Shown here in pieces: positions 8,675-51,420 of a stretch of 64,000 bases of DNA. Both the position numbers and the translations under genes were made by a program. The stretch comes from Patescibacteria group bacterium (GTDB taxonomy: Bacteria > Patescibacteriota > Minisyncoccia > UBA6257 > GWB1-50-10): contig JBBTQX010000002.1 in assembly GCA_038065455.1 (NCBI GenBank), positions 32,001 to 96,000 on the forward strand. Direction: 5' to 3'. Under the pieces are notes generated by a model that did no database searches, was not told where the DNA came from, and saw only the letters and a program-made list of their open reading frames with translations. The first letter of the stretch is position 1; every line of letters starts with the position of its first letter.

Positions 8675-8798
8675 CCCGTTTAGAGACAGGATACGCTTAA
8701 GAAGCATATCCGTGAAGCATTAGCCGATTCGACTTTATTGGATTCTATTGATTGTTTGATAATCATGTTATTCATAAGTTTGATGTCTCTAACGGGAT
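8673..8798 (-). mobile_element. Family A IR element, short copy (A2) at the rpsD start codon
   Basis: ATCCCGTTTAGAGACA (8673-8688, one extra T) / TGTCTCTAACGGGAT (8784-8798); internal hairpin GGATACGCTT-AAG-AAGCATATCC. Confidence 0.8.
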
Positions 8799-8808
8799 TC
8801 ATATTTTT

Positions 8809-8953
8809 ACCAGGCAGTGAAAATGCGATTGCAAATCGTGATTGAATCGACGATTCTCGCTATTTCCAATGACCTTTTATTTATATTCATATGTTTTGAT
8901 ATTATGATGGTTTTCGATTTGAATTCAATCTAATCGCATTTCTACTGCCTGGT
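8809..8953. mobile_element. Family B IR element, short copy (B1) directly after the rpsK stop
   Basis: ACCAGGCAGTGAAAATGCGATT (8809-8830) / AATCGCATTTCTACTGCCTGGT (8932-8953). Confidence 0.8.
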
Positions 8954-9402
8954 TAAACCCTTCTGGTCTTGGCCGGACGCGGTCCGTTGTGCGGAATCGG
9001 CGTCACATCCTTGATGGACAGTATATTCAAGCCCTTGCCGGCGAAAGAACGGATGGCGGAATCGCGGCCGCTACCCACGCCGCGCACGAAAATCTCCACG
9101 GTATTCGGGCCGGTCTTTTCCAATTTCTGGGCAATGGCTTCGGCGACTTTGGAAGACGCGAAAGGAGTCGCCTTCTTGGGTCCGGAAAATCCCAAAGAGC
9201 CAGCGGACATCCATGTAATCACGGCACCCTTATCGTCGGTTACGGTAATAATGGTGTTATTATAGGTGGCTTGAATATAGATACGGCCGTTTTCCCAGTG
9301 CTGTTTGGATGTGGACGAAGATTGCTTAGCCGGCGCCTTTTCGGCCGTCCCCGCTTCCTTCACCGCTTCGTCTTTGGTTTTTATGACTTTTTTCTTTCCC
9401 AT
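8953..9402 (-). CDS. rpsK: 30S ribosomal protein S11
   Basis: ATYNNTIIT, SAGSLGFSGPKKATPF, GVGSGRDSAIR, DVTPIPHNG. Confidence 0.97.
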   Translation of the reverse strand: MGKKKVIKTKDEAVKEAGTAEKAPAKQSSSTSKQHWENGRIYIQATYNNTIITVTDDKGAVITWMSAGSLGFSGPKKATPFASSKVAEAIAQKLEKTGPNTVEIFVRGVGSGRDSAIRSFAGKGLNILSIKDVTPIPHNGPRPAKTRRV

Positions 9403-9415
9403 TTGCCGATTATAT

Positions 9416-9450
9416 ATGAATTTTCGAGTCTACAGACGATGAAAATTCAT
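9416..9450. repeat. Hairpin upstream of rpsK
   Basis: ATGAATTTTC (9416-9425) / GAAAATTCAT (9441-9450), with an inner GTC/GAC pairing. Confidence 0.6.
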
Positions 9451-9464
9451 CCATAGAATCGAGC

Positions 9465-9563
9465 ACCCCGCCATCATCCCCGACTTGGAGCAGGATATTT
9501 TCTTTCATTATGATTTTCGTTATTTTATTGTTTTTCATATTTTTAGTGTAATGATGGCGGGGT
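9465..9563. repeat. IR-bounded AT-rich insert between rpsM and rpsK
   Basis: Perfect 13-bp IR ACCCCGCCATCAT (9465-9477) / ATGATGGCGGGGT (9551-9563). Confidence 0.75.
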
Positions 9564-9573
9564 AAGTGTTCCC

Positions 9574-9957
9574 TTATTTCAAATCGACTTTCCGCTTGCC
9601 ACTACCGGCCGTCTTCCTGACGTTGCCGCGCACCGTCCGGGAATTCGTTTTCGTCCGCTGGCCGCGCACCGGAAGCTTTCGCAAATGACGCACGCCGCGA
9701 TAGGCTTTAATATCTTTCAAGCGAGCGATGTTCTGTTTTATCACTTGCCGCAACTCTCCCTCAATCTTGTAGTTCTTCTCTATCATTGATTGGATGCGGT
9801 TCACCTCGTCCGGCGCCAAATCCTTCGCTCGTTTTTGGAGGTCGATTTTCGCGCCGACCAAAACCTTGGCGGCCAAGGTCGGGCCAATGCCGTAGATGTA
9901 GCCCAAGGCCACGTAGATTTTTTTGTTATCGGGTATGTTTACTCCGGCGATTCTCAT
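9574..9957 (-). CDS. rpsM: 30S ribosomal protein S13
   Basis: MRIAGVNIP, IYGIG, YRGVRH, LPVRGQRTKTNSRT. Confidence 0.97.
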   Translation of the reverse strand: MRIAGVNIPDNKKIYVALGYIYGIGPTLAAKVLVGAKIDLQKRAKDLAPDEVNRIQSMIEKNYKIEGELRQVIKQNIARLKDIKAYRGVRHLRKLPVRGQRTKTNSRTVRGNVRKTAGSGKRKVDLK

Positions 9958-9959
9958 AA

Positions 9960-10076
9960 TTATCCTTGTCTTTGTTTATGCCTCGGGTTCTTGGCACATA
10001 TGACGTAAACCCGCCCTTTTCGACGGACGGTCTTGCAAACGCTGCAGATTTTTTTTACCGATGCTCTGACTTTCAT
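9960..10076 (-). CDS. rpmJ: 50S ribosomal protein L36 (too short for the ORF track)
   Basis: Manual translation [38 protein letters not shown]. Confidence 0.97.
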
Positions 10077-10198
10077 CCCGTTAGAGACAGGATACGCTTA
10101 AAAAGCGCATCCGTGATATGTCGCTTGGTTTGATTATTCCGACCTGTTGGTTATTCATATTGATACATTATTCAAAATTTGTTTGTCTCTAACGGGAT
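10075..10198 (-). mobile_element. Family A IR element, short copy (A3) at the rpmJ start codon
   Basis: ATCCCGTTAGAGACA (10075-10089) / TGTCTCTAACGGGAT (10184-10198); internal hairpin with arms GGATACGCTT and AAGCGCATCC. Confidence 0.8.
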
Positions 10199-10208
10199 TC
10201 ATAAAACT

Positions 10209-10436
10209 TTACAATCTTCGCACGATTCGTCCCCGTTTGTCCAGGATGTTCGCCATCTCCACCATAACCCTGTCTCCGGGGATAACCCGGATGCGGTTGA
10301 TTTTAAGCTTGCCGGCGGGATGCGCTAAAATGTCTTTTTCTTCCCCGTTTTCAAGTTTGACCTTCACGCGGAAAAGCAAACCCGGCAGTGCCTCCACCGC
10401 TATTCCCTCAATCCTGACTAAAGGCGTATTTTCCAT
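10209..10436 (-). CDS. infA: Translation initiation factor IF-1
   Basis: IEGIAVEALPGLLFRV, ILAHPAGK, IRVIPGDRV, RGRIV; upstream of rpmJ. Confidence 0.93.
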   Translation of the reverse strand: MENTPLVRIEGIAVEALPGLLFRVKVKLENGEEKDILAHPAGKLKINRIRVIPGDRVMVEMANILDKRGRIVRRL

Positions 10437-10451
10437 TAACAAACAGAGTGA

Positions 10452-10480
10452 ATTTTAGACAAATACAGATTTTTTGTCAA
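10452..10480 (-). promoter_or_regulatory. Sigma70 promoter for the infA-rpmJ-rpsM cluster
   Basis: Minus strand TTGACA-17 bp-TAAAAT. Confidence 0.8.
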
Positions 10481-10513
10481 TTTTTTAATCTATAAATCGT
10501 CTTTAATATCAGT

Positions 10514-10555
10514 TGTGGATAACTATTGACGCTTATTCATGTAAGTCGTTATAAT
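10514..10555 (+). promoter_or_regulatory. Sigma70 promoter (+ strand) preceded by a DnaA-box match; points into the NYN 3' end
   Basis: TGTGGATAA (10514-10522), TTGACG (10526-10531)-18 bp-TATAAT (10550-10555). Confidence 0.7.
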
Positions 10556-10561
10556 GATAAT

Positions 10562-10642
10562 ACAGAATAACTTCTGTCCTGCCCGTGGATATGGGTTAAC
10601 TTTCCGCAAGACCTGATTCTCTTGAGTCAGGTTTTTGCTTTT
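10562..10642 (+). ncRNA. Candidate ~80-nt sRNA antisense to the NYN gene 3' end
   Basis: Consensus promoter upstream; two small hairpins; terminator AGACCTGATTC-TCTT-GAGTCAGGTTT plus a T-run, with G-U pairs forming on the + strand. Confidence 0.55.
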
Positions 10643-11306
10643 TAACCGCAATATACTTTTTTATGTCTTGAGCATTGATTTTATTATCAACTAGCTCTCC
10701 TAACGACGCATCAATATGCCCTCCTTTTATTAAAATTATCTTTTTCTTTTGTTTCTTTAAGAAACGGATAAGAGCGGCGAAATCGGCATCGGACGATAAT
10801 AGACAGAACGTATCATATGAATTGATGAGTCTTACGGAATCAACTGAAACCTCCACGTCAAAATTGCACTTCGGAATCAATATAAAATTCCCTCCCTTAT
10901 CAACATTTATCTTCCGCATTGTCTCGCTTTTTTCTTCGGAATCCAGATAATGCTTGATTTGCTGTATTGGTTTAGTGAAAACCCTAGACTTACCGAAAAT
11001 ATGTTCCGCGGCCCGTTTGAATCTTAAAGACCCTGGATTAACAGGGTCGTGTCCATAATAAAAACGATCATCGCTGGAAAACGCGCTCAAGAAATCTTTT
11101 AATTTTTGCAGACCAATCGTTAACAACTCATTATCTGCCATTTTCACTCCGCTCTCATCAAAATCATCTTCATCAAACCAATGATTGACGTTCGCAAAAT
11201 CAATGAATGAGATAATGTTCGGATACCTGTCCGGTAAGATATCAAGATTTTTTCTTATTTGATCTTTTTTAAGTTCTTCCAAATCCATTTTAATTTTCTC
11301 CTTCAA
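10596..11306 (-). CDS. NYN (PIN-like, LabA/DUF88) domain nuclease
   Basis: FIDFANV, KCNFDVEVSVD, LLSSDADFAALI acidic catalytic motifs. Confidence 0.85.
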   Translation of the reverse strand: MKEKIKMDLEELKKDQIRKNLDILPDRYPNIISFIDFANVNHWFDEDDFDESGVKMADNELLTIGLQKLKDFLSAFSSDDRFYYGHDPVNPGSLRFKRAAEHIFGKSRVFTKPIQQIKHYLDSEEKSETMRKINVDKGGNFILIPKCNFDVEVSVDSVRLINSYDTFCLLSSDADFAALIRFLKKQKKKIILIKGGHIDASLGELVDNKINAQDIKKYIAVKKQKPDSRESGLAES

Positions 11307-14142
11307 CTGTTTTTATTTCTTCCTCCGTTAAGCCGTAGAGCTTATATACCTCCTCATCAATTTTCTTGTCGGTTCTTCCTATTTCGGATTTCAGTCGTTC
11401 CCATTCGTTGGAATTTTCCTCGACGTCGTGAAATTCTTTATTAAGAAGGATTATCTTATCAACATAAGAAATTATTAATTTCTGCGATGCCTCGTCTGCA
11501 ATATAAATTGGTAGATCTAATAGTGGCTCCTTATCTATTTGTAGTTGATCACCCTGTAATTTCCCCTTATTTCTTAACCAGAAATGCATGATGTTTGAAT
11601 TGAGTAATCCAAGAACATATTTGAGATTCACTTTATCCAATTTTAAAATTATAAAAGCTCTTGTAACATAACAAGGAAAATCAACATATGAAAAGGATGG
11701 TTTTATGGTTTTCCTTATTGAAAAAATACAGTGGCCCTCAAAAAATCTTTCTTCGCGTGCCCTATGAAGACCATAGGGAGCATACACAGAAGTTAAAATT
11801 TTAGAAAATTTATCTAGGTGTTTTTTGAGATTAGGAAACTGTTCAATATGTTCCCGGAAATAACTGTCCGCATAAATTATACGGAGGCTTGTGTTTTTAA
11901 TAGATAAGTATCTATTTATTTCTTTTGTTGTATAGTACGGTCTTAAATATTGATCTTCAGGTTTTGTTGGTGAAAGTTCTTTAATTTCGTCCTCAGATAA
12001 AATAAATATGCCATCGCCTTTCTTTATTGTTTTATCTGACAAACCCTGTAGGTGCTTTTCAGTGATAAAATCTTGCAAAACATCAATGCCATTACCGACA
12101 TCTTTTTCGTTAATGTGGTAATTCTGTTTTGATTTTATCTTTTCTAGGAGAATGTCTTTATTGCTCTCGGTAAAAATTAAAAAGTGGCCCAGTAATTTTT
12201 CTGGTTTAATCTCAATTTCGGTTTTTTCACCAAAAATTCTGGAAATAAGTTCGTTTTCCGCTATATTCCTATCGGGAATCCTTAAATAACTTACCTTGTA
12301 TTTTTCATCTGGTTTTCCTTTTTTAAAGGTAAAAATCATTGTTTGAATCCCAGCTTGTTCAAAAACCTTATAGTCACCAAAATCTAGGAAGGATTTTAGT
12401 TCGCCATCTTTTAAAATTTTATCTCTAAAAATATCTGCGCCGGCATTGCTTACCCAATTATTCGGAGCGATAAAACTCAAAATTCCCCCGTCTTTAAGTA
12501 AATCTATTGAAATGCACGCAAACATTGTCCAAATATCCATTTTACCCTGATAATATGGGCTATCGTGCAGACCATTAAAAGCTTCTTTATTCACAAACTC
12601 CTTGATATACGGCGGGTTTCCGATAATCACATCAAACCCGCCTTGTTTGAAAACCTCCGGAAATTCCTCTTCCCAGTTAAACGGCTTCTTATTGCGAAAA
12701 TTTGCACCAAAATGCTTTTTAAGTTCCGAGTCGGTGCCCGAAATGAGCGAGTTTCCATTCTTTATATTTTTATCGAGCGATGGCAGCTTCTGCCTTTCAT
12801 TTAAAGCGCCTACAAGAAGATTTAATCTGGCGATTTCAACCGCTTGCTCGTCCAGATCAACCCCATAGATATTCTCTAAAAGTATTTGGATTTTTGTGAA
12901 AACATTCCCTGGTGCGCCCATTTTCTTGTATTTTTCATTGATAAGTTCCAACGCCTGAACAAGAAACGAACCGGAACCACAGGCCGGGTCCAGTACCTTT
13001 ATCTTCTTCAAATCCTCTATAGTGTTGCACTTTTCCAAAACCGGCCCCAAGGCGTTTTTCACGATATACTCAACGATAAAATGGGGCGTGTAATAAATCC
13101 CCTGCTCCTTGCGCTTCTTAGCATCCTTATGAACTTCTACGCCCTTCTTTGATTGAGAAAGTTTATAGCCGAGATAGTTTTCATAAACTGTTCCTAGAAC
13201 ATCAGCGGGCATCGCCTTGAAATCATATTCATAATAGCCCGGTTTGCCGTAGAGAATCTGAATAACTTTCTCCGTGGCGTCGCCATATTCCTCCCATTCT
13301 TCAAACGGGTGTTCGGAAAAAAGATTGGAATTGTAGGTTTTATCCAATTCCCTGAATTTATCCACCATGTGCTTGTAAAGCGGCACCTCGTTTTGGTCTT
13401 TGCGATTTTTCCATTCACGAAGCAATGGGATAAGCGTTGGCGGTTCAATTCCTCTATCCTCGGCAACACGTAAAAAGATAAGTCTGTCCAAAAGCTTTTG
13501 AACGCCTTCATCTAAAAATTGGGGGGCAATTTTAGAATTCCAAGCCTTCAACGATTTAGTAAGAATCTCCCGACATTCGTTCAGGTCGTTGAATAACAGC
13601 GAAGTTACCGGAATTTTCTGGAATTTCTTTCCGAATTTTTCTGCCTCTGTATCGATAAGATTTTTCTCGAATGATTCTCTTGATAAGAGCGAAAGTTGGT
13701 CAAAACATTCAATATATCTATCGTAGGAAATTTCAAAGAGAAGTTTGGCGGCCAATGTCGCTTTCGCATCCTGCGTGTTGAAAACTTTTATACTCTCAAA
13801 GTCGGTAAGCACTGCCCAAGTTACGCCCTTATTCCAAGAATATCTTATTGCTTGTTTGGCATATTCTTCGCGATGCAAATCCACCTTAAGTGATTTGGCC
13901 TCTAAATAGAATTTCGCCCGGCCATTTAAATAAAATCCGTAATCAACTCTATCCGAGGATGATAAATTTTCTTCCGCTGAAACCTCATTTTTGTTATGGA
14001 CATCCCACCCAAGCGCTTCAAAAATCGGCAGAATAAAATCTTTTTTTGTTTCCTCTTCCGTATAACTCTTTATCTTGCCGGCCGATTTAGCAATTTCATA
14101 CTTATCAATAAGCAACCTTATCTTCTCTTTCGGGTCATTCAT
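11290..14142 (-). CDS. Fused type IIG/IIL-like restriction-modification enzyme (N-terminal nuclease, N6-adenine MTase, TaqI-C-like specificity domain)
   Basis: EEETK...RVDYGF...YLEAK nuclease; GIYYTP, VLDPACGSGSFL, GFDVIIGNPPY; C-terminal LLNS and IDEEVYKLYGLT. Confidence 0.9.
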   Translation of the reverse strand: MNDPKEKIRLLIDKYEIAKSAGKIKSYTEEETKKDFILPIFEALGWDVHNKNEVSAEENLSSSDRVDYGFYLNGRAKFYLEAKSLKVDLHREEYAKQAIRYSWNKGVTWAVLTDFESIKVFNTQDAKATLAAKLLFEISYDRYIECFDQLSLLSRESFEKNLIDTEAEKFGKKFQKIPVTSLLFNDLNECREILTKSLKAWNSKIAPQFLDEGVQKLLDRLIFLRVAEDRGIEPPTLIPLLREWKNRKDQNEVPLYKHMVDKFRELDKTYNSNLFSEHPFEEWEEYGDATEKVIQILYGKPGYYEYDFKAMPADVLGTVYENYLGYKLSQSKKGVEVHKDAKKRKEQGIYYTPHFIVEYIVKNALGPVLEKCNTIEDLKKIKVLDPACGSGSFLVQALELINEKYKKMGAPGNVFTKIQILLENIYGVDLDEQAVEIARLNLLVGALNERQKLPSLDKNIKNGNSLISGTDSELKKHFGANFRNKKPFNWEEEFPEVFKQGGFDVIIGNPPYIKEFVNKEAFNGLHDSPYYQGKMDIWTMFACISIDLLKDGGILSFIAPNNWVSNAGADIFRDKILKDGELKSFLDFGDYKVFEQAGIQTMIFTFKKGKPDEKYKVSYLRIPDRNIAENELISRIFGEKTEIEIKPEKLLGHFLIFTESNKDILLEKIKSKQNYHINEKDVGNGIDVLQDFITEKHLQGLSDKTIKKGDGIFILSEDEIKELSPTKPEDQYLRPYYTTKEINRYLSIKNTSLRIIYADSYFREHIEQFPNLKKHLDKFSKILTSVYAPYGLHRAREERFFEGHCIFSIRKTIKPSFSYVDFPCYVTRAFIILKLDKVNLKYVLGLLNSNIMHFWLRNKGKLQGDQLQIDKEPLLDLPIYIADEASQKLIISYVDKIILLNKEFHDVEENSNEWERLKSEIGRTDKKIDEEVYKLYGLTEEEIKTVEGEN

Positions 14143-14148
14143 CTTATT

Positions 14149-15885: not shown

Positions 15886-15901
15886 TGGCTTTTATTTTAA
15901 C

Positions 15902-21920: not shown

Positions 21921-21950
21921 CTAGGTGGTGTCTTTAAAGACACCACCTAG
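21921..21950. repeat. Family C perfect palindrome, copy 1
   Basis: CTAGGTGGTGTCTTTAAAGACACCACCTAG (30 bp). Confidence 0.9.
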
Positions 21951-37607: not shown

Positions 37608-39092
37608 TTATCCCCAGGGTGGTGTCTTTAAAGACACCACCCTGTTTTTCGACGTTTTCAAAATGAAAGTTGCGATTGCCAGATAATAAGCAACAATAAA
37701 AATCCAACCCAAAGACACGCTTAGAGATAGATTGAAGTTGCCGAAGAATTCTATCAGTCCCGTCTCGACTTTCAATAGCGGCCAAACGAACCAGCCGGCG
37801 ATGAGCGCGAGATAATGCGAGATGCCGGAGAGAACGGCGACGGCGAAGCCGAGCATCATCGTATACGGAATAAGCTCCAGAACCAGAACATTCGAGATGA
37901 GCGAAATAGGCGAAAAATTCCCGAAGTTCTGGATTAATATCGGAAGAACCATAAGCTGAGCGGAGCCGGTCATCAGGAGATTCTCCCGCCAGGAAAAAGT
38001 TTCTTTTTTCCCGCCGACCGGCAAATTGAAAAGCTCTTCGAGCGCCGGCTTCAAATATACGATGCCGATGAGCGCGAGGAATGAAAGTTCAAAACCGGCA
38101 TCGAATACCAACACCTTGGGATTTATAAGCACCATCAAGAGTCCCGCTAAAGTTATGGCATTCCGCGGATTGAAGATGCGGCCGCTCTCGGTCGCAACGA
38201 CGACGAGCGCGCCCATAATCGCCGCTCGCACGACCGATGCCTCCGCTCCGGTCATAAGCACGAAGGCGACAAGGAAAATGAAGGCGACAATAAAAGCAGT
38301 CCTTCTTTTCAAGAATGAAGTGAGTAAAGCCATTGCCGCCACGATGACGATCGAGACGTTGTAGCCCGAAAGCGCGACCAGGTGCGTCGTGCCGCTTATC
38401 TGCATCGCCACTTTGAACTCGGGAGAAAAATCGCTCCGCTCACCCAAGGTCAGGCCGGAAAGAAAAGCCGCTTCCTCGACCGGCAATATCTCTCCGAAAT
38501 TATCCACAGTGGAATTCTTGAGATTGAATAAAAAAGATTTGAAGGGCGCGCCCTTATCTTCCGCGATTAGCTTAACTTCGGGATATGAAACAATTCCGCT
38601 TATTCCCTCCTTCGCCAGATATTGGGCATAGCCTGCCTGCGCAGGCAGGCCTCCCAATTCCGGTTTTTTGACCGCGCCATTTACCGAAATCAAGTCGCCA
38701 TAATGGAATTCGGGATAGCGCGGAGCATTTACGAGAATTTTCACCTTGGCGCCGGAAAATTCCGTTTGGACGTAAAGATTTTGATAACTCCCCCTTGGGG
38801 CGGGATTATTCACCACCAATCCCTGGAAATTGAGCTTTTCTCCGGTCGGAATATACTTTTCAGTAAAATTCCTATCGTCGGCGGCCGAATAAAGCGCACC
38901 GATGGCTATAAAGGCCGAAAGTCCCGCAATCCAAAAAAACCGCCGGCTCTTCTTCCAAAATCCCAGCGAAACAAAAACAGCCGCGCCAGCGGCCGTCAAA
39001 ACCAATATCCAGAAATTCAAATGGAGGCTCTCTAACCCTACTCCAAAAAGAAAGAAAATCGAACCGAAAAAGAAAATATTATACGGCTCCAT
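37608..39092 (-). CDS. comEC: ComEC/Rec2 competence channel
   Basis: GTTHLVALSGYNV, ASVVRAAIMG, NPKVLVFDAGFELSF. Confidence 0.9.
   Translation of the reverse strand: MEPYNIFFFGSIFFLFGVGLESLHLNFWILVLTAAGAAVFVSLGFWKKSRRFFWIAGLSAFIAIGALYSAADDRNFTEKYIPTGEKLNFQGLVVNNPAPRGSYQNLYVQTEFSGAKVKILVNAPRYPEFHYGDLISVNGAVKKPELGGLPAQAGYAQYLAKEGISGIVSYPEVKLIAEDKGAPFKSFLFNLKNSTVDNFGEILPVEEAAFLSGLTLGERSDFSPEFKVAMQISGTTHLVALSGYNVSIVIVAAMALLTSFLKRRTAFIVAFIFLVAFVLMTGAEASVVRAAIMGALVVVATESGRIFNPRNAITLAGLLMVLINPKVLVFDAGFELSFLALIGIVYLKPALEELFNLPVGGKKETFSWRENLLMTGSAQLMVLPILIQNFGNFSPISLISNVLVLELIPYTMMLGFAVAVLSGISHYLALIAGWFVWPLLKVETGLIEFFGNFNLSLSVSLGWIFIVAYYLAIATFILKTSKNRVVSLKTPPWG
37615..37644. repeat. Family C perfect palindrome, copy 2 (inside the comEC 3' end)
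   Basis: CAGGGTGGTGTCTTTAAAGACACCACCCTG (30 bp). Confidence 0.9.
38631..38650. repeat. 20-bp perfect palindrome within comEC
   Basis: GCCTGCCTGCGCAGGCAGGC, read as (G)LPAQAG. Confidence 0.8.
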
Positions 39093-40219: not shown

Positions 40220-40791
40220 ACTTTCTCCACGCGCTCCACGTACTCGCCTGTTGTCGTATTCACTCTCAAAATATCGCCTTCATTGATGAAGAGAGGAGCA
40301 TCCACCTTCGCGCCCGTTTCGAGCGTCACCACTTTCGTACCGCCTTGGGCCGTATTGCCCTTCACGGCCGGCGGAGCTTCGGTCACTTTCAAATCCATTT
40401 TTATCGGCAATTCCACATTGATAACCTTCTCGCCGAATTTATAGGCCGTTACTTCCAGATTGGTTTTGAGAAATTGGGCGGCCTTGCCGATAACGTCGAC
40501 GCTCAAGGTAAAGCGGTTTTTGGGATTACCTTTTTCGTTGAACCAAAATTCGCCGCGGCTCTGATAAATGAATATCACCGTCGTCGTGTCTATCTCGGCT
40601 TCCTCATATTCCTCGTTTTGGTGGGCGGAATAGTCCACCACCTTGCCGTTCACTAGATTCTCGATTTTGAGCTGGACGACTGGCTTCCTCTGTTGCATCC
40701 GGACGAAGGCGTATTCTATCACCTTCCACGGCTCGCCATCCTTGATGAAAACCGTGCCTATCTTCAACTCGTTATAGGATAATCTGGACAT
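40216..40791 (-). CDS. efp: Elongation factor P
   Basis: VELP, PAVKGNT, TLETG, PLFINEGD, GEYVER. Confidence 0.93.
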   Translation of the reverse strand: MSRLSYNELKIGTVFIKDGEPWKVIEYAFVRMQQRKPVVQLKIENLVNGKVVDYSAHQNEEYEEAEIDTTTVIFIYQSRGEFWFNEKGNPKNRFTLSVDVIGKAAQFLKTNLEVTAYKFGEKVINVELPIKMDLKVTEAPPAVKGNTAQGGTKVVTLETGAKVDAPLFINEGDILRVNTTTGEYVERVEKV

Positions 40792-40792
40792 A

Positions 40793-40929
40793 CCAGGTAG
40801 TGAAAATGCGATTTAAAATCGCGATAATTTGATTAATTTTTATAATAGATGACCTTTTATGTATCTTTTTACAATGCTGGGCAATAAATACGACTTAAAC
40901 TTGTTTCCAGTCGCATTTCTACTACCTGG
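40793..40929. mobile_element. Family B IR element, short copy (B2) at the efp start
   Basis: CCAGGTAGTGAAAATGCGA / TCGCATTTCTACTACCTGG flanked by a CATA direct repeat (40789-40792, 40930-40933). Confidence 0.8.
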
Positions 40930-43555: not shown

Positions 43556-43627
43556 TTACGATTACTTGGATTATGCGAGATTTTCTTCAAAAAATAACCC
43601 GCTCGCGGGTTATTTTATTTTTCCGTC

Positions 43628-43822: not shown

Positions 43823-43856
43823 TTTCTGGAATTATACCATAGCTGATGCGTGTTCG

Positions 43857-44162: not shown

Positions 44163-44185
44163 ATATTTAATTATACTCCTTTTTT

Positions 44186-45640
44186 CTATATCAAAGGCTC
44201 CGGCGTGTCGTCCTTCTTGGCGGCCGCTCCGCCTCCGGAATTTCCCGTAATGGCCGCCTTTTCCTGGGCACTCCGGAAGATGCCTGCCTCCTCCTCGGCG
44301 AGAAGTTTCTTGGCCGCGTCGGCCAGAATGGTGTATTTCGCCCGCGAAGCTTTAATAATTTTTTCTTTGAATGAGCTGTGGGGCGGCGGAAGAATCTTGA
44401 GCGTTTCGGCGGAGAAGGGGTCATAGGTCTCGCCATCAATCGTCATTTTTATGTAAAATTCTTGCATCCCGAGATTGATCATATCCTTGGATTTGAATAT
44501 CGGGGTCATTTCGGATTCCAATCGCGCGGCATCTTCGCCGCCCACTCGAAAAACGATAATACTCCCCGTATTACCCAAAACCGCCGCCTGAATCTGCGGA
44601 ATCAATTGTTGCATATATTGATGCGCCACCGTAAGACAAAGACCGTACTTCCGTGCTTCGGAAAGTAGATTCTCGAAAGTTTCCGTCACGAGGCTATGGA
44701 ACTCATCTATATAAAGATAGAAATCGTGCCGCTTGGATTCGGCCAGGGACGCCCGAGCCATGCCGGCCTGTTTTATTTTTGTAACGAACATCGAGCCGAA
44801 GAAACTGGAATTCTCCTCGCCCAGCTTTCCTTTTGAGAGATTGATGAGAATTATTTTCTTCTGATTCATCAGTTCTTCCAAGTTTATTTTATTCTCCTTC
44901 TGGCCGAAGATGTTCCGGAGGAGCGGATTAGAAAGAAACTGGCCGAGCTTGTTCACCAAAGGAATAATGGCATCGGTATCGAACTTCTCCGACCAGTCGG
45001 CGAACTCAATCGCCCAAAAGCGCTTGACCATATCGTCTTCGATGTACTCCACCACTTTCTGGCGGTAATTGCGGTCGTTCAAAAGCGAGATCATTCCACG
45101 CATGGTGGCGTAGGGATAGTCCAGCAGCGCAAGACAGGTGAAGCGGAAAACGTGCTCCAGCCGTGGCGTCCAATTCGCGCCGAATTGTTTTTCCATCACC
45201 TCAATAAGGCCTTGGGTGAGCTGATGTTTGAAAGATGGATCGATATTGGCGAGTGGATTGAATGAAACCGGGTATTCCGCGTCCGATGGGTCGATGATGC
45301 AGACGTCGTCGACGCGGTTTTCCGGAATGGCATCAAGAATTGCGTCAATCACGTCGCCGTGCGGGTCCATCAGGCACAATCCATAACCGTAGGCGATATC
45401 CTGACGGATTAGAAGCTCCAAAAGTTTGGACTTACCCACGCCGCTCTTGCCGACTATGTAGATATGGCGCCGGCGATCCACCCGCTTAATGCCGAAAACG
45501 AAGCGCTTTTCCTCGAGGGCCGCGATGTAGTTCGTACGCCCGATATAGGAAATTTCACTCGCGTCGGCCCTGCCGTAGACCGGGAGTTCCGGCGGCGGCG
45601 GGGCATACTTGATTATTTGAAGCTTTCCGGCTTTTGGCAT
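44186..45640 (-). CDS. Second VirD4/TraG/HerA-like P-loop ATPase
   Basis: HIYIVGKSGVGKS, MDPHGD, LYIDEFH, SEARKY, AHQY. Confidence 0.85.
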   Translation of the reverse strand: MPKAGKLQIIKYAPPPPELPVYGRADASEISYIGRTNYIAALEEKRFVFGIKRVDRRRHIYIVGKSGVGKSKLLELLIRQDIAYGYGLCLMDPHGDVIDAILDAIPENRVDDVCIIDPSDAEYPVSFNPLANIDPSFKHQLTQGLIEVMEKQFGANWTPRLEHVFRFTCLALLDYPYATMRGMISLLNDRNYRQKVVEYIEDDMVKRFWAIEFADWSEKFDTDAIIPLVNKLGQFLSNPLLRNIFGQKENKINLEELMNQKKIILINLSKGKLGEENSSFFGSMFVTKIKQAGMARASLAESKRHDFYLYIDEFHSLVTETFENLLSEARKYGLCLTVAHQYMQQLIPQIQAAVLGNTGSIIVFRVGGEDAARLESEMTPIFKSKDMINLGMQEFYIKMTIDGETYDPFSAETLKILPPPHSSFKEKIIKASRAKYTILADAAKKLLAEEEAGIFRSAQEKAAITGNSGGGAAAKKDDTPEPLI

Positions 45641-45642
45641 TT

Positions 45643-45956
45643 ACCAGGCAGTAGAAATTCGACTATTTGTGGTTTTTATCATAAAAGTATTCTTTGAGCA
45701 TGCGCTTTAGCAATCTGGCACCTTGGCTCGTCTTCAGATATTGCTCTCTTCTTGTTGCGTCCCTTGAATTCAAGTATGCCTCATAGTGTATCAATATCCA
45801 AGGTGCTTTTTTCTGGTTGAATAGCTCTTTTTGCGATTATGTTCTTTGAATCTTCTCTTTAAATCATTGGTATAGCCTATATACAACGAATTGTCTTTTA
45901 GACTCCGGAGAATGTAGATATAGAACATAATCGCGGTCGAATTTTCACTGCCTGGT
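45643..45956 (-). mobile_element. Family B IR element, nuclease-carrying copy (B3)
   Basis: ACCAGGCAGTAGAAATTCGAC (45643-45663) / GTCGAATTTTCACTGCCTGGT (45936-45956) enclosing a GIY-YIG gene. Confidence 0.78.
45663..45928 (-). pseudogene. GIY-YIG endonuclease split by a -1 frameshift at A_AAA_AAG (pseudogene, recoded gene or assembly error)
   Basis: Frame 0: MFYIYILRSLKDNSLYIGYTNDLKRRFKEHNRKKSYSTRKK; the -1 frame continues APWILIHYEAYLNSRDATRREQYLKTSQGARLLKRMLKEYFYDKNHK*; not in the ORF track. Confidence 0.85.
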
Positions 45957-45961
45957 GAAGT

Positions 45962-46477
45962 TTATTTTAAAGCGCCGATTTCTTTCAGGAACGATTCGAA
46001 TATATTCAGTATTTCTTTCGCTTCGCTTTCTTTTATTTCAAAGCCGGCCGTGTGCACCAAATCGTTTCGGATGCGATGGGCCCGCCAAAGATTTTCCAAG
46101 GTTTTCAGTTCCTTCGGGTTGAGCTTCTGGAGCTTGTCGGCGATATGCTCCCCTTCCAAACCCAGATCGTCGAGCGCTTCGCCCACCAGATTGTCAGCCG
46201 CCATTATCGCGAGCGTAAAAGAATGAGGCGGAGCGGAATGGGCCTTTTCCAATATCTTTTCCCAAACCTTCGCGTATCTTTCCGTATCGAATTCGCTTTG
46301 GGCGGCTTCCGTTCCTTCTTCTTTTTTCTTTCTCAGCGAACTGATTAAATCGGGGCGGTATTTGAGCGCCTTACGAAGTACAATAAAAAAACCAACCAGA
46401 AAAACGACGTCCAAAATAATGAATATGGTGCGAGCGGTGTAATAAAATCCCTCCAATTTTCCGAAAAAATCAGCCAT
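45962..46477 (-). CDS. Conserved single-TM hypothetical protein
   Basis: TM, W..I, LAIMAADNL, GEHIADKL, LWRAHRIRNDLVH (HEPN-like RxxxxH). Confidence 0.7.
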   Translation of the reverse strand: MADFFGKLEGFYYTARTIFIILDVVFLVGFFIVLRKALKYRPDLISSLRKKKEEGTEAAQSEFDTERYAKVWEKILEKAHSAPPHSFTLAIMAADNLVGEALDDLGLEGEHIADKLQKLNPKELKTLENLWRAHRIRNDLVHTAGFEIKESEAKEILNIFESFLKEIGALK

Positions 46478-47896
46478 TTATTTGTATCTTTCCAATTCTT
46501 CTTCTTCCCCGAAAATTGGTAATCCCGAAGGCGGACCAGCCCGCTTGCTCTCAAGATGTTTCAAATGGGGTTCGGTAAGCACAGTTGAAGTCGGAATATG
46601 GAAAAGCGTAGCGAGGCACTTCGTATTCATAATGAAACGCTTGGAAGTAGTATTCCAATTAAAAAGATAGGAGGTGAGCATTCTGCCGATGAGCGTTTCG
46701 ACCGGTACTTCGCGCTTCCGGTAATTTAAAAGCATCCTGGCTTTTCGGAACTCAAGCCGGGTACCGGGGAAAACGTAGGGTTTTTTCCAAATCATTGTTC
46801 TGGTGGCCACTCCATTATTTTGGCCGAAAGAATTCATATCCAAGTTGGAATATTGATTGAAAGCGCCCACGATACCTTTGCGGGGAAAATTATCGGAAAA
46901 GGTTTTTTTATTCGAGAAGTATACAAAACGTATCAAGGTGTTGAAGGCGGGCTTCGAAAGATTTTCTTCCACGGCCTTCAAAACATCGGCTTGGCCGGGC
47001 GAACGCATCATAGCCATTTCATACTCTTCGTTTCCGCCCGTAGGCAATGCGCGACCCTTCACCTTCCTCGTTTGCGGCTCTCTTAATTTTTTTAAATCGT
47101 CCTCCCATTTATCGTCCCAATTCTCCGAGCCGGCCGGAGCGATAAGGAACTGAATGCCGACGATTTCCGTCTTCTTCAATTTTCCCAGAATTTCCAAAAA
47201 AGATGAAATAGGGTCAAAACTTTTTTCCTCGGCTTCGTTCTCAAAATCGGTGTAGGTTTTTATCGGATACATATCGTCTTTTTTGAGTGTCATTTCGGTG
47301 CCCCACATATCCAAGTCTTTTTCGTAAACCTCATAAACCTTGTCGGGCAACTGGTCGACATAATCCGGCACCTCGACGATATCCAAGCCGGGATAATAAG
47401 AGAAGAAAGCCGCCTCTATCAAGTTTCTCAACTTGGCGTAACACCGAATATAGAGATGGATCTCGCCGCCGAAGCTGACCATTTCAAGCGAATACCATCG
47501 GGGCACTTCGCCGTCCCAATATTTTTCGCGAATATCATCCGGCGCATTCCTTAAGGAATGGAATGCCGCTAAAACCTGCTCCATTGCCTGAGAACTCTTT
47601 TCGATGAGGCGAGGTATCCTAAGCTCGAGAAAAACCCATTTAATATCAGTCTTAAATATCTCCTGGCGCCAATGAAGCCAGGTCTCGAGAAAAAGTCGGA
47701 AAATTACGATGAAAAACCATAGCCACCAAGTCCGTTTCAAAAAATCAATTACGACCGTGCCGAGAACGGAGGGAGCAACAAGGGGTACGACGAGCGCCCC
47801 GGCCGCGCCGGAAATGAAGAGTATCCACCAGGTCTCTTCTTTGCTGAACGCCTCTTCGAGAAAAGAGCCGAGCTCCTTCAAAAAATTACCTAACAT
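46478..47896 (-). CDS. Conserved membrane protein upstream of the ATPase pair
   Basis: N-terminal TMs, LELRIPR, AMEQV, SLEMVS, YPIKTY, LATLFHIP, PPSGLP. Confidence 0.75.
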   Translation of the reverse strand: MLGNFLKELGSFLEEAFSKEETWWILFISGAAGALVVPLVAPSVLGTVVIDFLKRTWWLWFFIVIFRLFLETWLHWRQEIFKTDIKWVFLELRIPRLIEKSSQAMEQVLAAFHSLRNAPDDIREKYWDGEVPRWYSLEMVSFGGEIHLYIRCYAKLRNLIEAAFFSYYPGLDIVEVPDYVDQLPDKVYEVYEKDLDMWGTEMTLKKDDMYPIKTYTDFENEAEEKSFDPISSFLEILGKLKKTEIVGIQFLIAPAGSENWDDKWEDDLKKLREPQTRKVKGRALPTGGNEEYEMAMMRSPGQADVLKAVEENLSKPAFNTLIRFVYFSNKKTFSDNFPRKGIVGAFNQYSNLDMNSFGQNNGVATRTMIWKKPYVFPGTRLEFRKARMLLNYRKREVPVETLIGRMLTSYLFNWNTTSKRFIMNTKCLATLFHIPTSTVLTEPHLKHLESKRAGPPSGLPIFGEEEELERYK

Positions 47897-47932
47897 TGAT
47901 TTCTTTTTATTTTACCTTATTAGAGAAATAAC

Positions 47933-47966
47933 AAAAACCCCGCCAATCCATAGACTGGCGGGGTTT
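47933..47966 (-). terminator. Intrinsic terminator
   Basis: Stem CCCGCCA...TGGCGGG next to an A-run on the + strand (U-tract on the minus strand). Confidence 0.65.
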
Positions 47967-47978
47967 CCGAACATTGGC

Positions 47979-48998
47979 TTAGGCCTCGCGAACCTGGTAT
48001 TTACCGCTATCCAATCGCTTGAAATACCGGCGATTTTGGAGATTAAGAAGAATGGTATTCTCCTTGAGAAGGCGCTGTTCGTTCACGAGACGCACCACCG
48101 TCGCGGATTCCAAAGAACCGTGTTTTTTCAGGAGCCGAGCGATGACCTCCCGCACCGTACCGGGTTCGTAGCCTTTTTCCTTCAGGGCATAAACGCCGCG
48201 CCCGACGAGAACGAAGCGATTGTCCTTGATGAGCTCGTTGTGCACTGTTTGAACGTGCGCCGGTTTCTTATCCAAACCGAACTTGTTGATATTCTTCGCG
48301 ATATCCCCGAAATGAAGAGGCCGTTCGTGTTTCTTCAAAACCAGATAAACTTTGTCGCGGATCGTCTTAGGCTCGATCTCGGGCCATTCTTTCAAACCGA
48401 AATCGCCGAAGATGTTCGTGCCAAAATGTTTCGGGATGGAAAGAAGATGGGCGGAAACCAAATCTTTCATATGATTCAAATAAAGTTTCTTGTTTAAAAT
48501 TTCTTCCTTCTTGCCGGACTTCAGGAAATTTGTGACCGTCTTTATGAAATCATGGAATTTTTCTTTGGATTTTTCATCGGAGAACCAGAAGGCTTGCGCG
48601 TTGTCGTCGTTCTTCGAATAAGAGGGTACACCCGCCACGAGAAGAATGAAGCGCAGTTTCTGGTCGGCGTGCTTCACATCCGCTCCAATCTCAAGGCCGT
48701 GAATAAGGTCGTTCATAAAATTGTCGTCGCGCTTCACGCCGCCCACACCCGCCAGGTGCTTCCTGGCATAATCCAAAATGACCGCCGCTTCTTCTTTTAC
48801 CTTCTTCGAAAGTTTTTTAATCGCCTGCTCCTCTATCTGGCGCACCCGCTCGCGGGTGATTTTGAGTTCATCGCCGATGAATTGGAGTGTCGAGCGCTCG
48901 CCGGTCTTCAAACCGAAACGGCCGACAATCACCCGGCGCTGTTTGGGGCTGAAATCGGCGAGAAGATTATCTATTAATTGGTCGAGATTTTGTTTCAT
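47979..48998 (-). CDS. Sigma70 region-4-like HTH plus C-terminal HARE-HTH-like protein
   Basis: RFGL...TLQFIGDELKITRERVRQIE; PLHFGDIA, TVHNELIKDNRFVLVGRGVYALKE. Confidence 0.8.
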   Translation of the reverse strand: MKQNLDQLIDNLLADFSPKQRRVIVGRFGLKTGERSTLQFIGDELKITRERVRQIEEQAIKKLSKKVKEEAAVILDYARKHLAGVGGVKRDDNFMNDLIHGLEIGADVKHADQKLRFILLVAGVPSYSKNDDNAQAFWFSDEKSKEKFHDFIKTVTNFLKSGKKEEILNKKLYLNHMKDLVSAHLLSIPKHFGTNIFGDFGLKEWPEIEPKTIRDKVYLVLKKHERPLHFGDIAKNINKFGLDKKPAHVQTVHNELIKDNRFVLVGRGVYALKEKGYEPGTVREVIARLLKKHGSLESATVVRLVNEQRLLKENTILLNLQNRRYFKRLDSGKYQVREA

Positions 48999-49041
48999 AT
49001 TTTAATGATGATAACGATAGCATAATGGTTTTACGGTGTCA

Positions 49042-49111
49042 ACCAGGTAGTGAAAATTCGGCCGCTTCGCACAGTCTGCCTTTGGCAGAAGCCGAATTTC
49101 TACTACCTGGT
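49042..49111. mobile_element. Family B IR element, minimal copy (B4) after secF
   Basis: ACCAGGTAGTGAAAATTCGGC / GCCGAATTTCTACTACCTGGT; TCAA direct repeat at both ends; inner hairpin TCTGCC-TTT-GGCAGA. Confidence 0.8.
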
Positions 49112-49126
49112 CAATCCCCCATCAGA

Positions 49127-50017
49127 CTATTTTTTCTGCCAAAGATACAACAGCGGGCTGGCCACGAATATGGAGGAATAGGTCCCGAAAACCGTTCCCA
49201 CGAGAATAGTGAGAATGAAGAAGAATATGGAAGCCGGGCCGAAAATAAGCAGGGTCACGAGCACAATAACGAGTGTGAGCGTGGTGTTTATGGAACGGGC
49301 CATGGTTTCGTTCACGCTGAAATTAATGATTTCGCCCAAGTCGAATCTTTTGCCTCGATTCAAAGTCAGGTTCTCCCGAATGCGGTCGAAGACCACGATG
49401 GTGTCATGGACGGAAAAACCCATCACGACAAGCAGTGCCACGATGAAATTCGTGTCTATTTCAATTCCTTTCCAGTGTCCCAAAATGGCCAAAAGGCCGG
49501 CCGGGATACTCACGTCGTGCAGGAGTGTCAAAAGAGTTACGATACCATACTTCCAAGATTTGACCGGTTCCGAAACCTTTCGGAAAGCCCAAGCAATGAA
49601 AAGCGATATACCGAACATTACGAGCGCCACGGCCCAAATGGATTTATTTTTGAGTTCCGAACCGATAGCCGGACCGATCGAGGAGTAACTTTTTTCGGAT
49701 ACCTCGCCGAATTCTTTTGCGAGCTCTTCCTTATAGTTCCGCCTCTGCTCTTCGCTCAAGCTCGGCAGGCGAACAAGGAAAGTTCCGTCATCGGAACTCT
49801 TCACGCTCACTGTACTTCCCTCTCCCGCCGTTTTTTGCAAAGCCTCCTTGATCGCCGTTTCGGTCACATCGCTCTTTCCAAAACTCATCTGCCATTCCGT
49901 GCCGCCTTTAAGGTCAATGCCGGGCCGGAGGCCGAAGATTATAATGAGCGCCCAAGCCGCGACAACCATAAGTCCAGAGAATCCTAAAAAGTAATTTTTA
50001 TTCGCTATCAGATTCAT
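49127..50017 (-). CDS. secF: Protein translocase subunit SecF
   Basis: GIDLKGG, IGPAIGSEL, LLHDV, GFSVHDTIVVFDRIRE, RSINT, YSSIFVASP. Confidence 0.95.
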   Translation of the reverse strand: MNLIANKNYFLGFSGLMVVAAWALIIIFGLRPGIDLKGGTEWQMSFGKSDVTETAIKEALQKTAGEGSTVSVKSSDDGTFLVRLPSLSEEQRRNYKEELAKEFGEVSEKSYSSIGPAIGSELKNKSIWAVALVMFGISLFIAWAFRKVSEPVKSWKYGIVTLLTLLHDVSIPAGLLAILGHWKGIEIDTNFIVALLVVMGFSVHDTIVVFDRIRENLTLNRGKRFDLGEIINFSVNETMARSINTTLTLVIVLVTLLIFGPASIFFFILTILVGTVFGTYSSIFVASPLLYLWQKK

Positions 50018-50140
50018 CCCGTTAGAGATAGGATACGCTTAACAAGCGTATCCGTGATATTTTTGTTTGTTCGACTGATTTTGATTGTTTTGATTTTATG
50101 GAAGTCATATTATTTATACTTTGAAAATCTCTAACGGGAT
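50016..50140 (-). mobile_element. Family A IR element, short copy (A4) between secD and secF
   Basis: ATCCCGTTAGAGAT (50016-50029) / ATCTCTAACGGGAT (50127-50140); ATGAAT direct repeat on the coding strand; supplies the secD stop codon. Confidence 0.82.
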
Positions 50141-51420
50141 TCATTATCTTCAACAGATTTATTATCTTGACCAATAAATATCCGAAGCATTGTGCGCGTG
50201 ATGGTAATAGCCGAGAACATACTGATCAAAACTCCGATTAAAAGTGTAAGAGCAAAACCGCGCACGAAACTCGAAGTGAAATAATAAAGGACGGTCGCTG
50301 TAATAATGGTCGAGATATTGGAATCCCGGATGGAGGTCCAAGCCCGTCGGAAACCCTCTTCAATGGCGGAATAGTGGGATAATCCCTTTTTAAGTTCTTC
50401 CTTCGTCCTTTCGAAAACGAGAATATTCGCGTCCACCGCCATACCAATAGACAGAATGAAGCCAGCGATACCCGAAAGAGTCATCGTTATGGGAACGATT
50501 TTGAAGATTGCGAGCGTCAAAGCCACGTACATTAAAAGCGCGAAAGCGGCGAATACTCCCAAACCGCGGTAATAAATAATCATAAAAAGGAGGATCGCGA
50601 GCGTTCCGACAATGCCCGCGAAAACGGCCTTATCGAAGGCTTCCTTTCCGAAATCGGGGCTTACTGTCCGCTGATTCACGAGTGTAATCGGCGCGGGCAA
50701 AGCTCCCGCGTTGAATCTTTCCGCGAGCTGGCGAGCCGTATCGACGGTAAAATTTCCGCTGATTTGAGCCTTGCCGCCCGTGATTTTCTGCTGGACCGTC
50801 GGCATCTCAATCAATTGATTATCCAAAAATATAGCGAGCGGCTTTCCTACATTCTTTCCGGTCAGATCGGCGAAAATTTCCGCTCCTGCGCTCGAAAAAG
50901 TGAGGTCTACTTGGGGCTGGCGCGTCACGGAATCAAAACTTATCTGCGCGCTCACAACATAACGGCCATTCAATTCCGTTGGAATAAATTGAACAGTGGA
51001 ACTCGCCTCAAGCGAACCCGTTGCGGGAGCGATTACTTCGCGAAAATCCAAAAAAGGCGTAGCACCAATCTCTTTAATAGCCTCATCGATATCCTTTATT
51101 CCGGCCAACTCCACCGCCAGCCTGGTCGATTCTCCTGCTTTCTCGACGAAAACTCGCGGTTCGCTCACTCCGAATAAATTGACGCGCTTTTCGATGACAT
51201 CCCTGAGACCACTGACCACCGAATCCCGATCGGCGAAACCGACTTTCGAGAGATCCACTTCATACGTCAAAAGACTGCCGCCGGCCAAATCCAGGCCGAA
51301 GTTCCAGGGCCGGAAGGAGCTTATTTTCTGCCACAAGGGTTCGTAGGAAAAAACAGCGGCGAAGGCGGCTACCGCCACGAGAAGAATCAATACTGCTACC
51401 AGTCGCTTCTTGGAAATCAT
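50131..51420 (-). CDS. secD: Protein translocase subunit SecD
   Basis: GLDLAGG, RVNLFGVSEP, AGALPAP, IGMAVDANILVFER, IRDSN, VRGFA. Confidence 0.95.
   Translation of the reverse strand: MISKKRLVAVLILLVAVAAFAAVFSYEPLWQKISSFRPWNFGLDLAGGSLLTYEVDLSKVGFADRDSVVSGLRDVIEKRVNLFGVSEPRVFVEKAGESTRLAVELAGIKDIDEAIKEIGATPFLDFREVIAPATGSLEASSTVQFIPTELNGRYVVSAQISFDSVTRQPQVDLTFSSAGAEIFADLTGKNVGKPLAIFLDNQLIEMPTVQQKITGGKAQISGNFTVDTARQLAERFNAGALPAPITLVNQRTVSPDFGKEAFDKAVFAGIVGTLAILLFMIIYYRGLGVFAAFALLMYVALTLAIFKIVPITMTLSGIAGFILSIGMAVDANILVFERTKEELKKGLSHYSAIEEGFRRAWTSIRDSNISTIITATVLYYFTSSFVRGFALTLLIGVLISMFSAITITRTMLRIFIGQDNKSVEDNESR

Follow-up and report, generated by a model that had tools for sequence, protein, structure and literature searches.

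The repetitive extragenic palindromic (REP) sequences with their REP-associated tyrosine transposases (RAYTs), and the insertion sequences of the IS200/IS605 group, are served by HUH tyrosine transposases; they have no terminal inverted repeats (TIRs) and leave no target duplication. Free-standing GIY-YIG homing endonuclease genes of phages copy themselves into one cognate site by way of flanking homology, likewise without TIRs or duplication. To our knowledge none of the solved UPF0213/Slx1 relatives, proteins with the same nuclease domain, is a mobile-element gene, and we know of no established role for the small UPF0213 GIY-YIG proteins. Here we describe an element, family A, that occurs in a 64,000-nucleotide stretch of a Patescibacteria genome (positions 32,001 to 96,000 of contig JBBTQX010000002.1, assembly GCA_038065455.1; hereafter the window) as one long copy, A1, and as short copies A2, A3 and A4. 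Our best explanation of the short copies, to which we give a probability of roughly 55%, is that they are MITEs (miniature inverted-repeat transposable elements) of a nuclease-encoding element, that they sit on start codons, and that each carries a small upstream open reading frame (uORF) from which ribosomes are handed to the host gene.

Family A is like REP/RAYT and IS200/IS605 in its small hairpin repeats, in having a single small and presumptively mobilising gene, and in a covarying subterminal stem; it differs in that the gene encodes a GIY-YIG nuclease, in its 13-bp TIRs and in its 4-bp duplication. With the phage homing genes it shares the character of a small selfish gene encoding a GIY-YIG nuclease, but its target genes number in the dozens and are unrelated, it has non-coding derivatives besides TIRs and a 4-bp duplication, and its nuclease, of UPF0213 type, is without a DNA-binding extension. 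We considered a homing endonuclease gene as an identity for family A and rejected it, given 19 different host genes in one genome, the TIRs and the 4-bp duplication.

Bacterial MITEs – ERIC, Correia and BOX among them – offer a further comparison. As set out in the available text of a 2024 review of prokaryotic MITEs (PMC10969869), they are short, multi-copy and bounded by TIRs and a short duplication, they are co-transcribed with adjacent genes, they fold into stem-loops and they derive from a longer coding partner, in all of which family A resembles them; several features by which a MITE is recognised are present, namely TIRs, a target duplication, empty sites and a longer coding partner with the same ends. 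Family A is set apart in that its partner is a GIY-YIG nuclease and not a DDE or other known transposase, and in that it sits on a start codon, rebuilds the ATG and carries an open reading frame (ORF) that ends at the host start. The available text of the review contains none of the terms 'start codon', 'translational coupling', 'GIY' and 'nuclease'. The Rickettsia palindromic elements (RPEs), as described in the same text, are likewise palindromic, selfish, some 110–150 bp long and, in small genomes, tolerated where essential genes are expressed. RPEs, however, insert in frame within ORFs and add residues to the product, whereas family A forms a separate upstream cistron, has a known coding partner and is fused to the host protein in none of 111 start-associated copies – those followed directly by ATG or GTG and then by at least 30 open codons, the other 63 being referred to as non-start copies. 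Membership of the RPE type was rejected on this account: no start copy is read in frame into its host, and stops are enriched in the frame that would do so. Native gene pairs coupled through ATGA or a short distance (PMC6728339 and PMC10666635, in the portions available) are like family A in that the stop-to-start spacing of the latter, –4 or +4/+5 nt, is within the range reported for reinitiation; they are unlike it in that the upstream cistron of family A comes from a mobile element, and the cistron of short copies encodes no conserved protein.

The nuclease of family A has the domain and the conserved hallmark residues of UPF0213/Slx1-type proteins (PDB 1zg2 and 1ywl; SLX1, 7wme), but its termini (MNPVRD... 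and ...RFLSLTG) are encoded by the TIRs. A literature search, with most subscription journals and supplements outside its coverage, gave no prokaryotic TIR element encoding a GIY-YIG nuclease and no MITEs on start codons; in the available text of PMC12455944 a GIY-YIG gene is merely listed among putative horizontal transfers. The widespread mini-element described here, which encodes a nuclease, settles on start codons and rebuilds them, appears to be undescribed.

Start codons as the site of insertion

The source genome, 654 kb in 10 contigs, was searched with an 11-mer of the family A TIR, at most one mismatch being allowed, and yielded 44 occurrences. Seven TIR matches fall in the window against 0.6 expected, and none of 100 shuffles reached seven; the repeat is thus not the product of chance. 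Genome-wide, family A comprises 17 short copies (core 109–139 nt) and 2 long copies (core 278 nt), along with smaller forms: three mini copies of 66–72 nt and one 30-nt palindrome. The mini copies (C4:18656-18721, C4:39414-39483 and C8:43685-43756) have GC-rich interiors and the TIR in common with family A; the one at C4:39414-39483 has the duplication TCAA and lies away from any start codon. The TIR was present in 30 of 61 relatives' genomes searched, and a scan of species-representative genomes gave at least 120 loci with at least 128 copies. Besides Patescibacteria, the records of that scan bear the labels Omnitrophota, Planctomycetota, Elusimicrobiota and others, which are labels of metagenome-assembled genomes taken as given; many of the copies so labelled outside Patescibacteria have ends of the form C-CCCG...CGGG-G and flanks such as ATTTAC...GTTTAC.

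The inverted repeats measure 13 bp (13–14 bp in every copy) and read (T/C)CCCGTTAGAG...CTCTAACGGG(A/G), with outermost bases that are complementary in 180 of 184 copies – T/A in 134, C/G in 46. In 125 of the 184 the two 4-nt flanks agree, the duplicated 4-mer being TGAA in 68, TGGA in 14, TGAG in 9, TAAA in 9, TTTA in 6 and other sequences in the rest; 22 of the 125 match at 4 nt and not at 5. It follows that 4 bp are duplicated and that the element itself contributes the first letter, A or G, of the rebuilt ATG or GTG. In this lineage the site is ATGAA at the start codon of the host gene, divided after its first letter (A-TGAA), and the element lies in the gene's orientation. The old ATG remains 5′ of the element, where it opens the element's ORF; the last base of the element, an A, and the duplicated TG make up the rebuilt host ATG.

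Every one of the 19 genomic copies of at least 109 nt ends in ...CGGG immediately before the ATG of an intact gene. The host genes include those for a PBP transpeptidase, leuS, a class I W/Y tRNA synthetase, ftsH, rpoC, ssb, smc, recR, rpe, iPGM, rpsR, rpsD, rpmJ and secF, and others besides. When copies of at least 100 nt from the source genome and related genomes are taken together, 54 of 57 have 30 or more open codons after them, and a 5′ flank ending in CAT – the sign of the opposite orientation – was seen in 5 of 128 copies among those listed. A census of ATGAA in the genome found 1765 intragenic occurrences, 255 that are intergenic or at an edge and 181 at first ATGs; the ORF calls behind it are crude, and with that proviso it suggests a preference for starts exceeding what the motif alone would give.

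That these are insertions is confirmed by empty sites in a genome of the same genus (G004) and in a related strain. The rpsD site of G004 reads ...ATGAAAAG... and its secF site ...ATGAAC..., both without the element. The related strain, some 90–93% identical, lacks A3 exactly: position 10071 is joined to 10198, 126 nt are skipped and 5 letters fit both sides. Contigs of this kind come from two DNA runs (X9 and X10) and one RNA run, and the same contigs skip A2 together with the family B repeat that adjoins it.

Two further loci bear on the use of the site. At the secF locus (50015-50160, and at locus L166) the empty site of a sister species has the secD stop overlapping the secF start (ATGA); in the source genome A4 lies within this native overlap, so that secD is now closed by a TAG inside the 5′ TIR. 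Elsewhere, at L089:5473-5710, two copies stand in tandem, the second on the ATGAA that follows the first, which suggests that a rebuilt start site is open to repeat insertion.

The nuclease-encoding form and its derivatives

The long element, about 280 bp, has a sole ORF of 94–95 amino acids that is read from tip to tip through both TIRs. In A1 the domain matches Pfam PF01541 (GIY-YIG) with an E-value of 5.5e-16, and the nearest solved relatives are the UPF0213 protein of PDB 1zg2 (E = 3.3e-12) and, next, SLX1 (7wme). The hallmark residues Y11, Y13, Y24, G26, R32, H38, E59 and N85 are invariant in 23 aligned homologues, and from this invariance we conclude that the nuclease is under purifying selection. 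A protein search returned 3343 homologues, of Patescibacteria type wherever named; among the best 120 of the 3343, 78 start with M-x-P-V/A-R, 30 start at an internal methionine and 114 end in LTG. Against the NCBIfam group I intron endonuclease the nuclease scored 19.6 bits, where the cut-off is 56.

Ten long copies were examined, two from the source genome – the second, at C8:28387-28664, differs from A1 by 1 nt – and eight from relatives. In all ten the TGA of the nuclease overlaps the host ATG; in six the 5′ flank provides an ATG in the nuclease frame, and four of these six have no other ATG. Long copies also have a long-range stem, in which the 10 nt ahead of the 3′ TIR are complementary to element positions ~88–97, so that codons for (L)RKRF are set against those for the 3′ subterminal KRFL. 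Complementarity is 10/10 in seven of the ten long copies and 9/10 in three, and two of them, L033 and L035, show compensatory changes at synonymous positions. The association of nuclease, TIRs and stem leads us to predict that the nuclease mobilises both the long and the short forms, and that the TIR together with the subterminal stem would be its cis signal. One host gene (start MKKLLLIDANSLIHRSF...) has a short copy in locus L026 (genome G001) and a long, nuclease-coding copy in L033 (G002).

The anatomy of the short copies follows from that of the long one. A short copy contains the first ~97 nt of the long element (~33 nuclease codons), a loop of 3–5 nt and the last ~24 nt; over the 5′ 100 nt, 67 of 96 aligned positions are identical to the long copy. 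By internal deletion the long-range stem collapses into the hairpin of the short copies, and the first ~33 nuclease codons run out of the nuclease frame into a TAA that lies within the TIR and 4 nt ahead of the ATG of the host, which explains the conserved length of 40 codons: the uORF is the N-terminal third of the nuclease joined to the 3′ end of the element. That family A short copies are non-autonomous MITE derivatives of an element with a GIY-YIG nuclease, and that they occupy start codons, is, in our judgement, very probable.

These results bear out what an earlier note on this DNA had observed in the short copies. The translations of A2 and A4 are the 40 amino acids quoted there, with stops 5 and 4 nt ahead of the host ATG; in A3 the frame breaks after 15 codons, restarts through ATGA, and a 25-codon ORF reaches the same TIR TAA. 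A4 has a perfect hairpin; in A2 and in A3 the sense strand shows a single G-T pair, at different positions.

The note had gone further, proposing that selection acts on the RNA structure and that substitutions in the stem yield G-U pairs on the mRNA strand only. The hairpin does covary: over 81 diverse copies 87.1% of cells pair, as against 59.6% when shuffled, a value reached by none of 500 shuffles; slid alignments give 37–47% pairing, and double changes are seen in 8 of 8 pairs. However, the hairpin is equally present in non-start copies and, as the long-range stem, in the long element. Since it occurs equally away from start codons it looks like a feature of the element and not of the host mRNA, and selection on RNA is unsupported in the form in which it was stated, DNA and RNA being indistinguishable here. 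The G-U claim holds for A2 and A3 but does not generalise. G-T pairs outnumber A-C pairs by 13 to 5 in 47 copies; in a larger set, uncorrected for relatedness, the figures are 19 versus 6 in 79 distinct hairpins of start copies and 8 versus 3 in 39 of non-start copies, and the energy of the whole-region fold favours the sense strand in 23 and the antisense strand in 22 of the 47 copies. We reject a strand rule on these grounds – a modest G-T excess, similar in non-start copies, with no strand preference over the whole region. The weak signal that is left, which has no tie to the host mRNA, would allow for a single-stranded top strand, as RNA or as DNA. An Rfam search of window positions 3500-10400, with E-values up to 1, gave no match for family A. 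In two copies of different subfamilies (C4:4794-4932 and C6:7388-7526) the hairpin loop holds an 18-nt palindrome, CCTGCCTGCGCAGGCAGG, which adds 6 codons in frame.

The small frame and a possible hand-over of ribosomes

The earlier note saw in this anatomy a case of translational coupling. As we envisage it, a ribosome would start at the old ATG, melt the 5′ arm and translate through the element; its passage would keep the 14-bp terminal stem open; and after terminating at –4 or +4 nt it would reinitiate on the host gene (termination–reinitiation). Folded as RNA, the element has a terminal stem of 14–15 bp stacked on the hairpin, with ~70 unpaired nt between, and the terminal stem takes in two letters of the host AUG, its A and its U. 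Fold energies lie between –37.7 and –46.5 kcal/mol (z between –5.7 and –6.5), those of the antisense strand being nearly equal. In native gene pairs reinitiation reportedly requires overlap or a very short distance and is nearly lost at ~20 nt (PMC10666635, available text); with such a need, an element would have cause to maintain an open frame as far as the junction.

Is the frame, then, kept open? Frames were scored in 174 of 175 short copies (one was omitted, its flank being too short), expected counts were taken from dinucleotide shuffles of the element interior, and a terminal ORF was defined as an ATG-initiated ORF of at least 24 codons that ends at the junction stop. In the comparison with shuffled controls that the earlier note had proposed, a terminal ORF is present in 65 of 111 start copies where 17.9 are expected (59% versus 16%). 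Among the 63 non-start copies there are 6, with 4.0 expected. Single-linkage clusters give 35 of 75 with a terminal ORF at starts against 9.9 expected, and 2 of 52 against 3.2 elsewhere. The effect is specific to frame. Stop-free interiors in start copies number 43 in the frame that ends at TAA (frame c; 18.2 expected) and 31 in the frame that ends at TGA (frame a; 17.6 expected), whereas the frame leading into the host protein (frame b) has 11 against 18.6 expected and is enriched in stops; in non-start copies all three frames are at expectation. No in-frame fusion to the host protein was found in the 111 start copies, in 22 of which the 5′ ATG is in the host frame.

All copies that carry a terminal ORF end it at a TAA at –7/–8 or a TGA at +1 relative to the ATG, which amounts to a stop-to-ATG distance of –4 (ATGA, in long copies and in class-2 short copies) or of +4/+5 nt. 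The path open to a ribosome in start copies is a single ORF in 31, a two-ORF relay in 28 and some other route in 2; it is broken in 24, and 26 are without a 5′ ATG or GTG. An orthologous pair of copies ahead of rpe in two species is identical at 101 of 124 positions, without gaps and with both frames open, and the third codon positions of the host gene are 60% identical over 90 nt. This pair agrees with constraint, and is compatible with it rather than proof, for which it is too small.

Several observations weigh against the reading of the short copies as vehicles of ribosome hand-over, and most of them also favour a relic-only account: that the small ORF is a leftover of ~33 nuclease codons without function, that the host gene is translated independently, and that selection acts only against N-terminal fusion or gross damage. 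A terminal ORF of at least 24 codons is lacking in 46 of the 111 start copies, and several copies of Saccharibacteria type have stops in every frame, yet precede open genes. The uORF, homologous to the N-terminus of the nuclease, descends from the nuclease gene, and its openness is in part inherited. Non-start copies with T/A ends are enriched in terminal ORFs too (6 of 19, with 1.7 expected; C/G non-start copies, 0 of 40), so that the contrast between start and non-start copies is partly, and perhaps largely, one between T/A and C/G lineages. The parental frame is open in 26 of 55, 14 of 34 and 1 of 22 copies of the three length classes, a pattern that does not discriminate, because frameshifted descendants of an open ancestor would produce it as well; of the 15 non-zero length differences from the cluster consensus, as many as 12 are not multiples of 3. 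Stop gains within clusters vary with the clustering – 1 versus 12.4 expected, 1 versus 8.0 and 1 versus 3.3 in some settings, 12 versus 13.3 and 31 versus 39.8 in others – and since the outcome hinges on clustering and on the quality of the consensus, it is not relied upon; taken singly, 12 versus 13.3 and 31 versus 39.8 favour the relic, 1 versus 12.4 and 1 versus 8.0 speak against it. Finally, a Shine-Dalgarno (SD) core ahead of the rebuilt ATG is found in 0 of 111 copies, which says little in a genome without SD usage: SD cores occur at 64 of 634 starts genome-wide, against 9% of random 16-mers, and the source lineage seems to initiate without them. We considered the missing SD as an argument for coupling and dropped it, SD cores being no commoner at starts than in random 16-mers.

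What tells against an ORF that is a relic and nothing more is the amount of change it has survived. Of the invariant residues of the nuclease, the five that lie outside the hairpin have all been lost from the uORF interior, so that many substitutions have passed, and yet 59% of start copies are open where 16% are expected. Copies whose duplication has decayed are no less open (18 of 29) than those in which it is intact (47 of 82), and the orientation bias is strong. We regard a functionless relic as unlikely, if by no means negligible. The fold itself might do the work instead, by bridging the leader to the rebuilt AUG or by offering a double-strand RNase a cut that leaves an mRNA with a short leader, the uORF then being irrelevant. 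The stable terminal stem with its stacked hairpin, the presence of ORF-less copies with long terminal stems before open genes and the lack of SD usage in the lineage all speak for such a role, but the stem pairs part of the AUG and should hamper direct initiation, and the frame-specific stops and the absence of fusions point to ribosomes that read the element; we consider it rather improbable. More remote still is excision from the transcript, with restoration of the original start region. The terminal stem would bring the duplicated TGAA copies together, and a contig from an RNA library does join 10071 to 10198; against this, identical joints occur in the DNA runs X9 and X10 with the variant letters of the related strain, no Rfam family matches family A in 3500-10400, and the frame-specific stops argue that the element stays in the translated mRNA. 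Contigs from the RNA run gave no sign of RNA-level excision, the joined forms being present in DNA runs also; the RNA evidence consists of contigs alone, and RNA cover over the elements, which may come from other copies, was left unused. We hold this to be very improbable, and hardly credible is a functional micro-protein of 40 amino acids: lengths of 39–46 amino acids recur and the N- and C-termini are conserved, but it is the DNA of the TIR and the hairpin that fixes these conserved ends, there is hardly any likeness between the interiors of different subfamilies, and many copies use the other frame or a relay.

The interpretation of the earlier note is supported in part, and the coupling that it proposed fares unevenly. 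The anatomy and the frame-specific openness fit coupling; the copies without an ORF, the inheritance of an open frame and the lineage effect weaken it. We would give a coupling function of the short copies about even odds. A broader proposal, which we advance tentatively, is that family A represents an undescribed class of prokaryotic DNA transposon: its sole gene, for a UPF0213/Slx1-like nuclease of ~94 amino acids, would run tip to tip between 13-bp TIRs; the element would target A-TGAA starts, take over the initiation site, rebuild the ATG and return ribosomes by way of ATGA or TAA-N4-ATG; its MITEs would keep a meaningless open frame for that purpose; and the covarying subterminal stem would be the cis signal that a structure-specific nuclease reads.

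Features of the window and wider bearing

The positions of the family A copies, of their ORFs and hairpins, and of two host genes are collected in Table 1. The 3′ TIR of A2 has one additional A, and its ORF stops 5 nt before the rpsD ATG at 8674-8672.

Table 1. Family A copies in the window with associated reading frames, hairpins and host genes.
Feature	Position	Strand	Remarks
A1, long (autonomous-type) copy	3626..3905	+	terminal T; core CCCG...CGGG 3627-3904; terminal A is the A of the host ATG
A1 nuclease ORF, 95 aa, GIY-YIG (UPF0213-type)	3621..3908	+	opens at the ATG of the 5′ flank, crosses both TIRs and ends in a TGA overlapping the host ATG (ATGA)
A1 host gene, PEGA-domain protein (weak Pfam match)	3905..5149	+	
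A2, short copy	8674..8797	-	terminal T 8797; terminal A 8674 is the A of the rpsD ATG
A2 40-codon ORF	8680..8802	-	5′ flank ATG 8802-8800 to TIR TAA 8682-8680
A2 hairpin	8689..8711	-	10-bp stem, 3-nt loop, one G-T pair
rpsD (S4), host of A2	8075..8674	-	
A3, short copy with terminal T and A	10076..10197	-	
A3 first ORF, 15 codons	10155..10202	-	opens at the ATG of the 5′ flank; ends in a TGA overlapping the ATG that follows
A3 second ORF, 25 codons	10081..10158	-	ends at the TIR TAA, 4 nt before the rpmJ ATG (10076-10074)
A3 hairpin	10090..10112	-	one G-T pair
A4, short copy with terminal T and A	50017..50139	-	
A4 40-codon ORF	50022..50144	-	TIR TAA 4 nt before the secF ATG (50017-50015)
A4 hairpin	50031..50053	-	perfect 10-bp stem

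The window holds other repeats. Another family of MITE-like repeats, family B, has the ends ACCAGGCAGTGAAAATGCGAT and is found at 8805-8959, 40791-40929, ~45636-45959, 49042-49118 and 52145-52225; one of its copies stands directly upstream of A2, and the two are missing together in the related strain. Between rpsM and rpsK lies a 171-nt insertion (9403-9573) with inverted ends CCCCGCCATCAT/ATGATGGCGGGG, which is absent from the related strain (joint 9402 to 9574). An identical 24-nt palindrome, GGTGGTGTCTTTAAAGACACCACC, followed by a run of T, occurs at 21924-21947, 37618-37641 and 63461-63484 and has the look of a common terminator or of a further small repeat.

Roughly 3% of the genes in the source genome (19 of ~660) carry a family A element at their start, and gene callers are liable to mis-place the starts of such host genes. 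The thousands of Patescibacteria proteins annotated as 'GIY-YIG nuclease family protein' are probably this element. Our reading would offer a candidate role for the widespread small UPF0213 GIY-YIG proteins and suggests a transposition chemistry hitherto undescribed for prokaryotic TIR elements. If our reading of the short copies as start-codon MITEs with a ribosome-returning uORF is correct, the pairs of element and host gene would provide a natural system for the study of termination–reinitiation in bacteria that do without the SD sequence. Family A would then be a very small selfish element able to live in some of the most gene-dense bacterial genomes, on the very starts of essential genes – one that borrows the translation start of rpoC, of tRNA synthetase and of ribosomal protein genes, and then hands the ribosome back.

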